From Escherichia coli (lineage in GTDB: Bacteria; Pseudomonadota; Gammaproteobacteria; Enterobacterales; Enterobacteriaceae), in the NCBI RefSeq assembly GCF_003334785.1, contig NZ_QOWV01000001.1: a DNA stretch of 64,000 bases; one strand, written 5' to 3'. A program made the translations under genes and the position numbers. The notes below the pieces were generated by a model. It saw only the letters and a program-made list of their open reading frames with translations. It made no database searches and was not told the DNA's origin. Of the stretch, positions 3,287-20,393 are shown piece by piece (the first letter of the stretch is position 1; each line of letters begins with the position of its first letter).

Positions 3287-6200
3287 TTGAGCCAGGAATA
3301 CACTGAAGACAAAGAAGTCACATTGACAAAGTTAAGTAGCGGCCGCCGCCTTCTGGAGGCGTTGCTGATCCTTATTGTCCTGTTTGCCGTCTGGTTGATG
3401 GCTGCCTTACTAAGCTTTAACCCTTCGGACCCCAGCTGGTCGCAAACGGCCTGGCATGAACCTATCCATAATTTAGGTGGGATGCCCGGTGCGTGGTTGG
3501 CAGATACGCTGTTCTTTATTTTTGGCGTGATGGCTTACACCATTCCCGTCATTATTGTCGGCGGTTGTTGGTTTGCCTGGCGTCATCAGTCCAGCGACGA
3601 ATACATTGATTATTTTGCCGTTTCGCTACGCATCATTGGCGTTTTGGCGCTCATCCTTACCTCCTGTGGTCTGGCGGCAATCAACGCTGACGATATCTGG
3701 TATTTTGCCTCCGGTGGCGTCATTGGCAGCTTACTAAGCACTACGCTACAACCACTGCTACACAGTAGCGGGGGAACTATTGCGCTGCTCTGCGTTTGGG
3801 CAGCGGGCCTGACGTTGTTCACCGGTTGGTCATGGGTGACCATTGCTGAAAAACTCGGCGGCTGGATTTTAAACATTCTCACCTTCGCCAGTAATCGTAC
3901 CCGTCGCGATGATACCTGGGTCGATGAAGATGAGTATGAAGACGACGAAGAGTATGAAGATGAAAATCACGGCAAACAGCATGAATCACGCCGTGCCCGT
4001 ATTCTTCGCGGCGCGCTAGCGCGTCGTAAACGGTTGGCGGAAAAATTCATTAATCCGATGGGGCGGCAAACAGACGCTGCGTTGTTCTCCGGTAAGCGGA
4101 TGGATGATGACGAAGAGATTACCTACACTGCACGCGGTGTGGCTGCCGACCCGGACGACGTCCTATTTTCGGGCAATCGTGCAACGCAGCCAGAATATGA
4201 CGAATACGATCCATTATTAAACGGTGCGCCAATTACCGAACCTGTCGCTGTAGCAGCTGCTGCTACCACGGCGACACAAAGCTGGGCTGCGCCGGTTGAA
4301 CCTGTGACTCAGACGCCGCCTGTTGCCTCTGTTGATGTTCCACCTGCGCAACCTACAGTAGCCTGGCAGCCTGTACCGGGTCCACAAACGGGAGAGCCGG
4401 TTATTGCTCCTGCACCGGAAGGTTACCCACAGCAGTCACAATATGCGCAGCCTGCAGTGCAATATAATGAGCCGCTGCAACAACCAGTACAGCCGCAGCA
4501 GCCGTATTATGCACCTGCAGCTGAACAACCTGCGCAACAGCCGTATTATGCCCCTGCGCCAGAACAACCGGTGGCAGGTAACGCCTGGCAAGCCGAAGAG
4601 CAGCAATCCACTTTTGCTCCACAGTCTACATACCAGACTGAGCAAACTTATCAGCAGCCAGCCGCTCAGGAGCCGTTGTACCAACAGCCGCAACCCGTTG
4701 AACAGCAGCCTGTTGTGGAGCCTGAACCCGTTGTAGAAGAGACAAAACCCGCGCGTCCGCCGCTTTACTACTTTGAAGAAGTTGAAGAGAAGCGAGCCCG
4801 TGAACGTGAACAACTTGCGGCCTGGTATCAACCGATTCCAGAACCGGTTAAAGAACCAGAACCGATCAAATCTTCGCTGAAAGCACCTTCTGTTGCAGCA
4901 GTACCTCCAGTAGAAGCCGCTGCCGCTGTTTCCCCGCTGGCATCTGGCGTGAAAAAAGCGACACTGGCGACGGGGGCTGCCGCAACCGTTGCCGCGCCAG
5001 TCTTCAGTCTGGCAAATAGCGGTGGACCGCGTCCTCAGGTCAAAGAGGGGATTGGTCCGCAGTTGCCACGACCGAAACGTATCCGCGTGCCAACTCGTCG
5101 TGAACTGGCGTCTTACGGTATTAAGCTGCCCTCACAGCGTGCGGCGGAAGAAAAAGCCCGTGAAGCCCAGCGCAATCAGTACGATTCTGGCGATCAGTAC
5201 AACGATGATGAAATCGATGCGATGCAGCAGGATGAACTGGCACGTCAGTTCGCCCAGACACAGCAGCAACGCTATGGCGAACAGTATCAACATGATGTGC
5301 CCGTAAACGCAGAAGATGCAGATGCTGCGGCAGAGGCTGAACTGGCTCGTCAGTTTGCGCAAACTCAACAACAACGTTATTCCGGCGAACAACCGGCTGG
5401 GGCGAATCCGTTCTCGCTGGATGATTTTGAATTTTCGCCAATGAAAGCGTTGCTGGATGATGGTCCACACGAACCGTTGTTTACGCCAATTGTTGAACCT
5501 GTACAGCAGCCGCAACAACCGGTTGCACCGCAGCAGCAATATCAGCAGCCGCAACAACCAGTTCCGCCGCAGCCGCAGTATCAGCAGCCACAACAGCCGG
5601 TTGCGCCGCAGCCACAATATCAGCAGCCGCAACAACCGGTTGCGCCACAGCAGCAATATCAGCAGCCGCAACAACCGGTTGCGCCGCAGCAGCAGTATCA
5701 GCAGCCACAACAGCCAGTTGCGCCACAACCGCAGGATACCCTGCTTCATCCGCTGTTGATGCGTAATGGCGACAGCCGTCCGTTGCATAAACCGACGACG
5801 CCGCTGCCTTCTCTGGATTTGCTGACACCGCCGCCGAGCGAAGTGGAGCCGGTAGATACCTTTGCGCTTGAACAAATGGCTCGCCTGGTGGAAGCGCGTC
5901 TGGCTGATTTCCGTATTAAAGCCGATGTCGTCAATTACTCTCCGGGGCCGGTTATCACTCGCTTTGAATTGAACCTGGCACCGGGCGTAAAAGCGGCGCG
6001 CATTTCTAACTTGTCACGGGACCTTGCCCGTTCACTTTCGACGGTGGCGGTGCGTGTCGTTGAAGTTATTCCTGGCAAACCCTATGTAGGTCTGGAGTTA
6101 CCGAATAAAAAACGACAAACCGTTTATCTGCGCGAAGTTTTGGATAACGCCAAATTCCGCGATAATCCGTCGCCATTAACCGTGGTGCTGGGTAAAGATA

Positions 6201-13476: not shown

Positions 13477-14094
13477 ATGACAACCCAGTATGGATTTTTT
13501 ATTGATTCCAGCCGTTGCACCGGTTGCAAAACCTGCGAGCTGGCCTGTAAAGACTACAAAGATTTGACGCCAGAAGTCAGCTTCCGCCGCATTTATGAAT
13601 ATGCTGGCGGCGACTGGCAGGAAGATAACGGTGTCTGGCACCAGAACGTGTTTGCCTACTATCTGTCGATTTCATGTAACCACTGCGAAGATCCGGCTTG
13701 TACTAAAGTCTGCCCGAGCGGTGCGATGCATAAACGTGAAGATGGTTTTGTTGTGGTCGATGAAGATGTGTGCATTGGCTGCCGCTACTGCCATATGGCT
13801 TGCCCGTATGGCGCACCGCAATATAACGAAACGAAAGGCCATATGACCAAATGCGATGGTTGTTATGACCGTGTTGCGGAGGGTAAAAAGCCGATCTGTG
13901 TTGAATCTTGTCCGCTGCGGGCGCTGGATTTCGGCCCTATCGACGAGCTGCGTAAAAAACATGGCGATCTGGCGGCCGTTGCGCCGTTGCCGCGAGCTCA
14001 CTTTACCAAACCGAATATTGTGATCAAACCCAATGCCAATAGCCGCCCGACCGGGGATACCACTGGCTATCTGGCAAACCCGAAGGAGGTGTGA
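13477..14094 (+). CDS. dmsB: DMSO reductase iron-sulfur subunit B
   Basis: 205 aa; four ferredoxin-type Cys clusters (CTGCKTCELAC..., CNHCEDPACTKVCP, CIGCRYCHMACP, CDGC...CVESCP). Confidence 0.96.
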   Translation: MTTQYGFFIDSSRCTGCKTCELACKDYKDLTPEVSFRRIYEYAGGDWQEDNGVWHQNVFAYYLSISCNHCEDPACTKVCPSGAMHKREDGFVVVDEDVCIGCRYCHMACPYGAPQYNETKGHMTKCDGCYDRVAEGKKPICVESCPLRALDFGPIDELRKKHGDLAAVAPLPRAHFTKPNIVIKPNANSRPTGDTTGYLANPKEV

Positions 14095-14095
14095 G

Positions 14096-14959
14096 ATGGG
14101 AAGTGGATGGCATGAATGGCCGCTGATGATCTTCACGGTCTTCGGGCAATGTGTAGCAGGTGGTTTTATCGTTCTGGCTTTGGCGCTGCTCAAAGGCGAC
14201 CTGCGAGCAGAAGCCCAGCAGCGTGTTATCGCCTGCATGTTTGGTTTATGGGTGCTGATGGGCATTGGCTTTATCGCCTCTATGCTCCATCTTGGTTCAC
14301 CAATGCGCGCTTTTAACTCGCTCAACCGGGTAGGGGCTTCAGCACTCAGTAACGAAATCGCCAGCGGTTCGATCTTTTTTGCCGTAGGCGGCATCGGCTG
14401 GTTGCTGGCAATGCTGAAAAAGCTGTCACCGGCATTGCGTACGCTGTGGCTGATAGTGACGATGGTTCTTGGCGTCATCTTTGTCTGGATGATGGTGCGT
14501 GTGTATAACAGCATTGATACCGTTCCGACCTGGTACAGCATCTGGACGCCGATGGGCTTCTTCCTGACGATGTTTATGGGCGGCCCGTTACTGGGTTACC
14601 TGTTGTTGAGTCTGGCTGGCGTCGATGGCTGGGCGATGCGTCTGCTGCCAGCAATTTCTGTACTGGCACTGGTAGTGAGTGGCGTGGTGTCAGTGATGCA
14701 GGGCGCAGAGCTGGCGACTATTCATAGTTCTGTGCAGCAGGCCGCAGCGCTGGTGCCGGACTATGGTGCGCTGATGTCCTGGCGGATCGTGCTTTTGGCC
14801 GTTGCCCTGTGCTTGTGGATTGCACCACAGCTAAAAGGTTATCAGCCTGCGGTTCCGCTACTTTCTGTATCATTCATTCTGCTTCTGGCAGGGGAATTAA
14901 TCGGTCGCGGCGTATTCTATGGTTTGCATATGACCGTGGGGATGGCCGTCGCAAGCTAA
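14096..14959 (+). CDS. dmsC: DMSO reductase membrane anchor subunit C
   Basis: 287 aa from ATG 14096 (MGSGWHEWPLMIFTVFGQCVAGGFIVLALA...); track ORF 14033 start is a 21-codon extension overlapping dmsB. Polytopic hydrophobic protein. Confidence 0.94.
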   Translation: MGSGWHEWPLMIFTVFGQCVAGGFIVLALALLKGDLRAEAQQRVIACMFGLWVLMGIGFIASMLHLGSPMRAFNSLNRVGASALSNEIASGSIFFAVGGIGWLLAMLKKLSPALRTLWLIVTMVLGVIFVWMMVRVYNSIDTVPTWYSIWTPMGFFLTMFMGGPLLGYLLLSLAGVDGWAMRLLPAISVLALVVSGVVSVMQGAELATIHSSVQQAAALVPDYGALMSWRIVLLAVALCLWIAPQLKGYQPAVPLLSVSFILLLAGELIGRGVFYGLHMTVGMAVAS

Positions 14960-14966
14960 TCATAAC

Positions 14967-15000
14967 AACCGGGGTTTCGGCCCCGGTTCTCTTTTATTTC
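14967..15000 (+). terminator. Intrinsic terminator of dmsABC
   Basis: aaccgggg-tttcgg-ccccggtt hairpin followed by tctcttttatttc. The T-tract overlaps the last codons of convergent ycaC. Confidence 0.8.
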
Positions 15001-15620
15001 TGCTTCGTTAACGTGTCATAACTGGTCATCAAATTACGATAATCAGGAATGTGGTTAGAGAACAACGTCGCCAGTCCTTCAATATCATTACGCCAGTCGC
15101 GATGCAGCTCGCACGCCACGCCGAACCATGTCATCAATTGCGCACCAGCTTGCGACAAGCGATCCCATGCCGAATGCCGGGTAATTTCATTAAAGGTCCC
15201 TGACGCGTCAGTCACGACAAAGACGTCAAACCCTTCTTCAATGGCTGAAAGCGCCGGGAATGCCACGCAAACTTCGGTTACCACACCGGCAATAATTAAC
15301 TGTTTTTTACCTGTCGCTTTGACAGCTTTTACAAAATCTTCGTTATCCCAGGCGTTAATATTTCCCGGGCGAGCAATGTAAGGTGTATCGGGGAATTGTG
15401 CTTTCAGTTCTGGAACTAATGGGCCGTTAGGACCGGTTTCAAAACTGGTGGTAAGAATAGTTGGTAAGTTGAAATACTTAGCCAGGTCACCCAGCGCCAG
15501 CACGTTATTTTTAAACTTATCGGGTTCGATATCCCGTACAAGGGAAAGTAAACCAGCCTGGTGATCAACAAGCAAAACGGCAGCATCATTTTTATCAAGA
15601 CGAACATACGGTTTGGTCAT
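14994..15620 (-). CDS. ycaC: Isochorismatase-family cysteine hydrolase YcaC
   Basis: 208 aa MTKPYVRLDKNDAAVLLVDHQAGLL...; isochorismatase-like fold signature with catalytic Cys in VTEVCVAFPAL. Confidence 0.92.
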   Translation of the reverse strand: MTKPYVRLDKNDAAVLLVDHQAGLLSLVRDIEPDKFKNNVLALGDLAKYFNLPTILTTSFETGPNGPLVPELKAQFPDTPYIARPGNINAWDNEDFVKAVKATGKKQLIIAGVVTEVCVAFPALSAIEEGFDVFVVTDASGTFNEITRHSAWDRLSQAGAQLMTWFGVACELHRDWRNDIEGLATLFSNHIPDYRNLMTSYDTLTKQK

Positions 15621-15933
15621 CCTCTTCTCCTTTCGAGAGTCAGTGGTACGTCTGAAATCGATCAGACGCGATGCATTGCTCTGAAAGCATAGACGGGAAA
15701 TATGAGTTTGCTGTGACCATGAAATTTTTCGACTGAACGAAGCGTATGAAATTTGTGTTAGTTCAATAAAAACAATCAGATGAGACTAATCATCTCTTCA
15801 GCATTAGCGTTATGAATGAGTAATATAAATCGATAATACCGCCGCTGGGATATCGCGTATTTTCACCCATTGACAATGTTTTTGGCGGTGGCATGATGCG
15901 CATGAAATTTGAACTTCCTCACGGTTTTAATTC

Positions 15934-17082
15934 ATGTCCACGTATACCCAGCCTGTCATGCTTTTGCTGTCTGGCCTGCTTTTGTTGACTCTGGCGATTG
16001 CGGTGTTAAATACACTCGTGCCGCTTTGGCTCGCCCAGGAACACATGTCCACATGGCAGGTAGGCGTTGTCAGCTCATCCTATTTTACCGGCAACCTTGT
16101 CGGTACATTGCTGACAGGGTATGTCATTAAGCGCATTGGCTTTAACCGCAGCTATTATCTGGCCTCCTTCATTTTTGCCGCTGGCTGTGCCGGCCTTGGC
16201 CTGATGATTGGATTCTGGAGCTGGTTGGCTTGGCGTTTTGTCGCGGGCGTCGGCTGTGCCATGATTTGGGTGGTTGTTGAGAGCGCGCTGATGTGCAGTG
16301 GGACGTCACGTAACCGTGGGCGTTTGCTTGCTGCGTATATGATGGTTTATTACGTGGGAACGTTTTTAGGCCAGTTACTGGTCAGCAAAGTTTCAACCGA
16401 GCTGATGTCCGTATTGCCGTGGGTTACAGGTTTGACGTTGGCAGGGATCTTACCGCTGTTGTTTACGCGTGTGCTGAATCAGCAGGCTGAAAACCATGAT
16501 TCGACGTCAATTACGTCAATGCTAAAACTCCGTCAGGCGCGGCTTGGCGTGAATGGCTGCATTATCTCAGGAATCGTTCTGGGATCTCTATATGGCCTGA
16601 TGCCGCTGTACCTCAATCACAAAGGGGTGAGCAATGCCAGCATTGGTTTCTGGATGGCGGTACTGGTCAGTGCGGGTATCCTTGGACAATGGCCGATTGG
16701 ACGTCTGGCGGATAAGTTTGGTCGACTGCTGGTGTTGCGTGTTCAGGTCTTTGTCGTCATTCTCGGCAGTATCGCGATGCTTAGCCAGGCGGCGATGGCC
16801 CCAGCGTTATTCATCCTCGGTGCCGCTGGCTTTACGCTATATCCGGTGGCGATGGCATGGGCTTGCGAGAAAGTTGAACATCATCAACTGGTGGCGATGA
16901 ACCAGGCCTTACTGTTGAGCTATACTGTGGGAAGTCTGCTTGGCCCGTCATTTACCGCTATGCTAATGCAGAATTTCTCCGATAATTTATTGTTTATCAT
17001 GATCGCCAGCGTATCGTTTATCTATTTGCTGATGCTGCTGCGCAACGCCGGTCATACGCCGAAACCCGTTGCTCACGTGTAA
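15934..17082 (+). CDS. ycaD: MFS transporter YcaD
   Basis: 382 aa, about 12 predicted hydrophobic segments, typical MFS organisation. Confidence 0.92.
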
Positions 17083-17091
17083 ATGAATTCA

Positions 17092-17132
17092 AGCAGAGTG
17101 TGAACTTACTGTTTCACACTCTGCTTTTTTGT
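17092..17132 (+). terminator. Intrinsic terminator of ycaD
   Basis: agcagagtgtgaa-cttactgt-ttcacactctgct (13-bp stem) followed by TTTTTTGTTTC. Lies inside the spurious N-extension of the track ORF 17100..18722. Confidence 0.85.
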
Positions 17133-20357: not shown

Positions 20358-20393
20358 AATAAAAAAGCGGCAACTCAATAAAGTTGCCGCTTT
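20358..20393 (-). terminator. Intrinsic terminator of pflA (structurally bidirectional, also follows ycaK)
   Basis: agcggcaac-tcaataaa-gttgccgct 9-bp stem; T-run on the minus strand (plus A-run 20360-20365), TTT on plus side. Confidence 0.75.

Follow-up and report, generated by a model that had tools for sequence, protein, structure and literature searches.

How are the transcripts of two convergent genes brought to an end when only a few tens of base pairs separate their stop codons, and does the single hairpin lying in such a gap serve one of the genes or both? This question is raised by the junction between ycaC and dmsC, the last gene of the FNR-dependent, anaerobically expressed dmsABC operon, in Escherichia coli. 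A sequence-only reading of this locus had named the hairpin the dmsABC terminator, described it as overlapping the 3′ coding end of ycaC and proposed that the same structure, read on the minus strand, could help to terminate ycaC. Here, we followed up these proposals in a 64-kb stretch of E. coli DNA (the window, meaning the whole stretch analysed), making use of hairpin and tail statistics, genome comparisons and published maps of RNA 3′ ends.

Organization of the dmsC/ycaC junction

Positions 14000–16000 of the window are identical to E. coli K-12 MG1655, the window coordinate being the MG1655 coordinate minus 929937, and gene names were taken from the RefSeq annotation of this identical E. 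coli DNA. According to this annotation, serS, dmsA, dmsB and dmsC lie in this order on the plus strand, followed by ycaC on the minus strand and then by ycaD. The dmsC coding sequence occupies 14096–14959 on the plus strand and ends, in annotation and sequence alike, with a TAA stop codon at 14957–14959, and ycaC (208 amino acids; 14994–15620, minus strand; open reading frame list and RefSeq annotation) ends with a TAA that reads TTA on the plus strand at 14994–14996. Reading the sequence directly, we found the two genes to be convergent and separated by a gap of 34 bp (14960–14993) with a single palindrome inside.

The window is not MG1655 itself, as indicated by scattered single-base differences (e.g. 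at 3303, 17258 and 17795), and consecutive mismatches to MG1655 from about position 57071 onward suggest an indel. The segment 14600–15400 is matched at 100% in some other E. coli strains.

The palindrome, AACCGGGGT-TTCG-GCCCCGGTT, lies at 14967–14988 and can be read on both strands, its GC core CCGGGG (14969–14974) pairing with CCCCGG (14981–14986). Five bases (14989–14993) separate the stem from the ycaC stop codon, which thus starts 6 bp after the last stem base, exactly as the sequence-only reading had it. On the opposite side, a 7-nt spacer (14960–14966, not assigned to a strand) lies between the dmsC stop codon and the stem and, read on the minus strand, opens the ycaC tail as G-U-U-A-U-G-A. 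No part of the stem-loop lies in coding sequence.

A GC-rich hairpin far beyond chance expectation

Using a terminator scan, the hairpin was called on both strands, with 9 pairs and a 4-nt loop on the plus strand and with 8 pairs and a 6-nt loop on the minus strand. The stem includes 6 G:C pairs and the bare hairpin has a calculated dG of −15.3 (plus) and −13.9 (minus) kcal/mol, as befits the GC-rich stem-loop of an intrinsic terminator. When RNA folding was performed in a 51-nt context, the plus strand reached −15.9 kcal/mol (z −3.9), which none of 200 shuffles matched or bettered, and the minus strand reached −16.9 kcal/mol (z −3.2), matched or bettered by 2 of 200.

Across the 64-kb window, perfect hairpins of at least 8 bp with at least 6 G:C pairs occur 11 times, compared with 1.4 ± 1.1 in 30 dinucleotide shuffles, and hairpins of the same class followed by a T-rich tail occur 7 times, compared with 0.17 in the shuffles. 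Perfect GC-rich hairpins of this class are so far above the shuffled background that almost all of them must be real signals, and most of those in the window adjoin gene ends. By our own arithmetic, the chance of finding such a hairpin in one given 34-bp gap is <1e-3. The dmsC/ycaC hairpin is therefore real and far beyond chance.

U-rich tails on the two strands

The quality of the tails was evaluated with a d'Aubenton-Carafa-type weighting, the scores of which serve solely for comparison with the background of the window (mean 0.69; 99th percentile 2.98). Since the two A:U pairs closing the base of the stem can be counted as tail, scoring started at the GC core.

In the dmsABC direction, the hairpin is followed by the U-rich tail CTCTTTTATTTCTGC (14989–15003, plus strand), which overlaps the ycaC stop, Lys208 and Gln207 codons and appears on the minus strand as an A-rich tract upstream of the hairpin. 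Within it, CTCTTTTATTTCT (14989–15001, plus strand) spans the ycaC stop codon, Lys208 AAA (14997–14999) and two bases of Gln207 CAG, so that the earlier placement of the T tract over the last two ycaC codons agrees with the sequence in covering the stop, Lys208 and part of Gln207. The proposed overlap of the terminator with the ycaC coding end accordingly holds for the T tract and fails for the stem-loop, which is intergenic. Counted from the GC core, the plus-strand tail UUCUCUUUUAUU contains U at 9 of 12 positions and scores 3.25 (99.5th percentile of the window).

In the ycaC direction, the tail counted from the GC core is UUGUUAUGAUUA (14957–14968, minus strand), an interrupted U-rich tract overlapping the dmsC stop codon, with U at 7 of 12 positions and a score of 2.90 (98.8th percentile of the window). 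The first 8 nt past the GC core contain 6 U residues on the plus strand (UUCUCUUU) and 5 on the minus strand (UUGUUAUG), where the run is interrupted. The U tract expected of an intrinsic terminator is present on both strands, the minus strand being borderline; the dmsABC direction is the more canonical one and the tail in the ycaC direction is not poor.

Published 3′ ends at the foot of the hairpin

To see where transcripts end at the junction, we consulted the curated MG1655 3′ ends in supplementary file 1 of the Term-seq study of Adams et al. 2021 (eLife, PMC7815308). This table lists a 'primary' 3′ end of ycaC at 944900 (minus strand; average of 130,079 reads) for LB at OD600 2.0 and another at 944901 (minus strand; 51,903 reads) on its third sheet, which, judging from the sheet order, corresponds to M63 glucose; both are also flagged 'antisense' for dmsC (PMC7815308). 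Converted to window coordinates, these ends lie at 14963 and 14964 on the minus strand, that is 3–4 nt past the full stem, 6–7 nt past the GC core and 4–5 nt before the dmsC stop codon, giving ...CCCCGGUUGUU(A)-3′ as the terminus of ycaC mRNA. Each sequence string of the table comprises 61 nt, the 3′ end being nucleotide 51, whereas the table caption speaks of '40 bp upstream and 10 bp downstream'; checked against the coordinates, position 1 of the ycaC string is window position 15013 and position 51 is window position 14963.

These data bear out the proposed contribution of the hairpin to the end of ycaC. Further minus-strand 3′ ends within dmsABC are absent from the curated table, and ycaC transcripts extending well into dmsC, which would have spoken against the proposal, are likewise not seen in this list, in which read-through is not quantified. 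The LB OD 0.4 sheet contains no ycaC 3′ end, and plus-strand 3′ ends near dmsC are absent from all three conditions, all of them aerobic (PMC7815308). The table provides curated ends, each of which documents 3′-end formation and not termination as such. The missing dmsC 3′ end is expected, since dmsABC expression is anaerobic and FNR-dependent and all three cultures were aerobic.

Neither ycaC nor dmsC occurs in the supplement of bioRxiv 10.1101/2022.10.23.513370 or in the TERMITe supplements. A literature search for anaerobic termination-site mapping covering dmsA returned nothing, and one for 'dmsABC terminator' returned no relevant paper by title.

Conservation of the junction element

The junction element was found in 5424 of 5426 complete E. 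coli genomes, in which it occupies a median of 1 and at most 2 places per genome. Its 36-nt core (14964–14999) is identical in 4042 of these 5424 genomes, carries one mismatch in 1374 and more in 8. Membership in a REP or other repeat family was considered and rejected on account of this single-copy occurrence, and an Rfam scan of 14500–15700 (E ≤ 10) yielded no family, the best E-value being 4.3 and the scores 10–17 bits against gathering scores of 45–218.

Among five sampled alleles the stem is invariant with the sole exception of the loop-closing pair, which is U.G in the window but has become U-A in one of the alleles and C-G in L004, a divergent Escherichia lineage, all of them pairable; a formal covariation test would for this reason be uninformative. 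Changes are also seen in the tails: a common E. coli allele carries a 1-nt G insertion in the spacer 14960–14966, that is in the minus-strand tail (UUGUUACUGAUUA), and another allele has a T-to-G change in the plus-strand tail.

Beyond E. coli, the comparison comprised the three loci with a dmsC/ycaC junction (L004, L005 and L006) among the best 80 YcaC matches. The hairpin and its adjoining U tract are also kept in the Escherichia lineage and in Citrobacter sedlakii. In the latter, the core is the same and the loop different, the hairpin directly follows the ycaC stop codon with the U tract abutting it on the dmsC side, and a REP-like palindrome is located between the hairpin and dmsC. The C. 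werkmanii gap between the two genes is filled with REP-like elements and contains the hairpin in decayed form, so that the hairpin is not indispensable. These arrangements suggest that the association of the element with ycaC is at least as close as that with dmsC. The designation 'dmsABC terminator' is consequently one-sided: the hairpin and its tail are present as described, the dmsABC half is a prediction from sequence, and the comparative data tie the hairpin to ycaC, since in C. sedlakii it stays beside the ycaC stop codon and is separated from dmsC by the REP-like palindrome.

The same search revealed that YcaC (14994–15620) shares 85–91% amino acid identity with proteins of Pseudomonas, Marinobacter, Burkholderiales, Vogesella, Geobacter and others. 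Only three enteric genomes are among the best 80 matches, loci L007–L083 being mostly non-enteric orthologs. Such identity across non-enteric bacteria points to unusually high conservation, or to horizontal spread, of a hydrolase without a known substrate.

Several genomes carry a disrupted junction. In strain MSB1_1A (L002, ~1896–2606), an IS200C copy with an annotated tnpA interrupts the plus-strand T tract directly behind ...CCGGTTCTCTTT, corresponding to window position ~14994/14995, and splits the hairpin off from the ycaC stop codon. In strain HCP17S3_I4 (L092, 551–2445), IS421 and IS1A transposase genes separate dmsC from ycaC, and the match to the hairpin is broken in two at window position ~14977, in the hairpin loop. 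In strain OkiPb01695 (L089, ~400–410), a deletion runs from the 3′ end of dmsB through the whole of dmsC and into the hairpin, whose left arm is lost; the deletion junction reads ...GGCGCTGGAT|TTCGGCCCCGGTT, the endpoint lies in the hairpin loop and ycaC is left without the hairpin. About 65 of the 5424 genomes cover <80% of the 36-nt core, and the dmsC/ycaC gap looks like a recurrent target of IS insertion or rearrangement.

Related terminators and convergent gene pairs

Three of the six convergent gene pairs in the window share one hairpin, namely dmsC/ycaC, ycaK/pflA (hairpin 20364–20393; gap 81 bp) and pepN/ssuB (hairpin 63304–63333; gap 42 bp). In each case a single perfect palindrome stands between the two genes. 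A good U tract is, however, found on one strand only in ycaK/pflA (scores of 0.02 versus 3.22) and pepN/ssuB (0.33 versus 3.09), which makes dmsC/ycaC the most symmetrical of the three shared hairpins; it is also the only one with a tail entering coding sequence. Among the remaining pairs, gloC/aspC has separate terminators and REPs, and neither ycaM/ycaN, which abut with a 0-nt gap (18722/18723), nor ycbJ/elyC, whose coding sequences overlap by 24 nt (42685–42708), has a shared hairpin. Since no space for a terminator is left in the latter two pairs, each transcript must have its end within the gene opposite.

The 3′ end of pepN has been mapped at its own hairpin (MG1655 993275; PMC7815308). 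This end is located 5 nt past a 12-bp hairpin (window 63304–63338) whose tail, GGAAUUUACC, contains no U tract (score 0.33); such a tract is found solely towards ssuB. Of 18 'primary' ends in one sampled portion of the Term-seq table, 7 additionally carry the label antisense to a convergent neighbour (PMC7815308).

The ycaD terminator (17091–17126; Term-seq end at MG1655 947069) resembles the dmsC/ycaC element in combining a GC-rich stem with a U tract just past a stop codon and in having its mapped 3′ end a few nucleotides into the tail. It differs in its 14-bp stem, its uninterrupted U run (score 4.47), an end 8 nt past the stem and its single direction of action, whereas the dmsC/ycaC element has a shorter stem and weaker tails (3.25 and 2.90), adjoins two genes and lies 5–7 nt from both stop codons.

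Another likeness is found in bidirectional terminators between convergent genes, which are prevalent in E. coli according to papers citing Ju et al. 2019. In this SEnd-seq class (Ju, Li & Liu 2019), exemplified by ynaJ-uspE, a short convergent gap likewise contains one hairpin that is read both ways, a tract that is A-rich upstream of the hairpin on one strand serves the opposite strand as U tract, and the two RNAs have the hairpin as their region of overlap. The dmsC/ycaC junction shares the defining arrangement of convergent genes with one hairpin between them (dmsC ending at 14959 on the plus strand and ycaC at 14994 on the minus strand). It differs from the ynaJ-uspE class in that its tails are reasonably U-rich, so that classical intrinsic termination may suffice, and in that dmsABC is conditionally silent and the ycaC end forms nevertheless, the ycaC end being the only one mapped. 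A further parallel is provided by the hairpin-protected ends of Dar & Sorek 2018 (PMC6061677), which likewise show a sharp 3′ end a few nucleotides past a stable stem-loop; the mechanism set out there requires downstream Rho-dependent termination, which for ycaC is hypothetical.

Formation of the ycaC 3′ end

The mapped end could in principle arise in a different manner, with the hairpin acting as a true terminator only for dmsABC, the ycaC transcripts stopping farther on (e.g. by Rho) and their RNA being trimmed by 3′–5′ exonucleases back to 14963/14964. An end just 3–4 nt past the full stem, behind a tail interrupted by G and A, fits such processing, and trimming of Rho-terminated transcripts to stable stem-loops has been described (PMC6061677). 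The pepN end from the same dataset, located past a hairpin without a U tract, shows that hairpin-defined ends without canonical tails occur. The RNA downstream of the ycaC hairpin is moderately richer in C than in G (C/G of 1.6 in the first 78 nt), a composition that is mildly suggestive only as an indicator of Rho and is so on both strands. Against processing, the UUGUUAU tail counted from the GC core scores higher than all but 1.2% of the window background, and the end lies 6–7 nt past this core, near the canonical position. The bicyclomycin table (LB, OD 0.5) moreover lists no Rho-termination region at 9448xx–9450xx, which weighs little given that no ycaC 3′ end was detected in that culture (PMC7815308). 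An end position a few nucleotides past a stem cannot by itself separate termination from trimming; on the whole of this evidence we regard the processing explanation as unlikely.

For the ynaJ-uspE bidirectional terminator, a collision model has been proposed (bioRxiv 10.1101/2022.10.23.513370). Applied to the present locus, the hairpin would be a pause site at which dmsABC and ycaC polymerases meet head-on and are dislodged by trailing polymerases. The short convergent gap, the single hairpin and the overlapping 3′ regions agree with this class; the U-rich tails on both strands, however, set the locus apart from elements that have been characterized as 'not resembling intrinsic terminators'. 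Furthermore, the ycaC end forms in aerobic LB and M63, where no dmsC end was detected and dmsABC is expected to be near silent, and an oncoming polymerase is therefore not needed, which makes collision a very improbable cause. That the palindrome is a product of chance, a member of a REP-like repeat family or a protein-binding site without any role in transcript ends has next to no probability: nothing specific speaks for it apart from the REP-like palindromes that adjoin the hairpin in Citrobacter, the chance expectation is very low and an RNA 3′ end has been mapped at the hairpin foot. The chance or repeat reading is effectively refuted by this Term-seq end together with the copy number of the element.

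A probable two-way terminator

Taken together, these results make it likely that the dmsC/ycaC hairpin is one bidirectional intrinsic terminator and, at the same time, a 3′-protective structure for both convergent mRNAs. On the plus strand, RNA polymerase leaving dmsC would synthesize AACCGGGGU-UUCG-GCCCCGGUU and then CUCUUUUAUUU; upon folding of the hairpin, the weak rU:dA hybrid would melt and dmsABC RNA would end at ~14993–14997, a position predicted to coincide with the ycaC stop codon. On the minus strand, polymerase leaving ycaC would produce the complementary hairpin followed by UUGUUAU and release its transcript at 14964/14963, where the published Term-seq ends are found. The dmsABC and ycaC mRNAs would consequently overlap by ~30 nt, comprising the hairpin and both tails. 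A hairpin left at the 3′ end of an mRNA protects it against 3′–5′ exonucleases. Untranslated read-through on either strand would probably be removed by Rho.

Counting against the two-way terminator model are the absence of plus-strand 3′ ends from the aerobic Term-seq data, the decay of the hairpin in C. werkmanii, the interruption of the ycaC tail and an end 3–4 nt past the stem that also fits exonuclease trimming. In addition, a reporter system revealed strong repression, exerted by the ribosome, of a terminator placed this near to a stop codon (PMC4824070). With both stop codons lying 5–7 nt from the stem, termination efficiency may therefore be modest, and by analogy with that system termination at the dmsC/ycaC hairpin may be leaky or translation-sensitive. 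A stronger version of this idea, which we consider quite improbable, is that the site acts as a translation-sensitive two-way valve and not as a fixed stop. A ribosome terminating on either mRNA would then cover part of the 5′ arm of the hairpin, and termination each way would be tuned by how closely translation trails transcription. If true, antisense read-through between a respiratory operon of anaerobic cells and a hydrolase gene of stationary phase would vary with conditions.

Implications

Overall, the dmsC/ycaC hairpin is an ordinary member of a well-described class, and the ycaC 3′ end is already contained in a public dataset. The 3′ boundary of ycaC mRNA is fixed at 14963/14964 and that of dmsABC is predicted at ~14993–14997, which is of little import beyond annotation and contributes a further member to a class known from genome-wide work in E. 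coli. As a naturally asymmetric pair, in which dmsABC is silent in air, the junction could nevertheless be a convenient natural setting in which to ask whether an oncoming polymerase is required at bidirectional terminators, and what effect the nearness of a stop codon has on termination.
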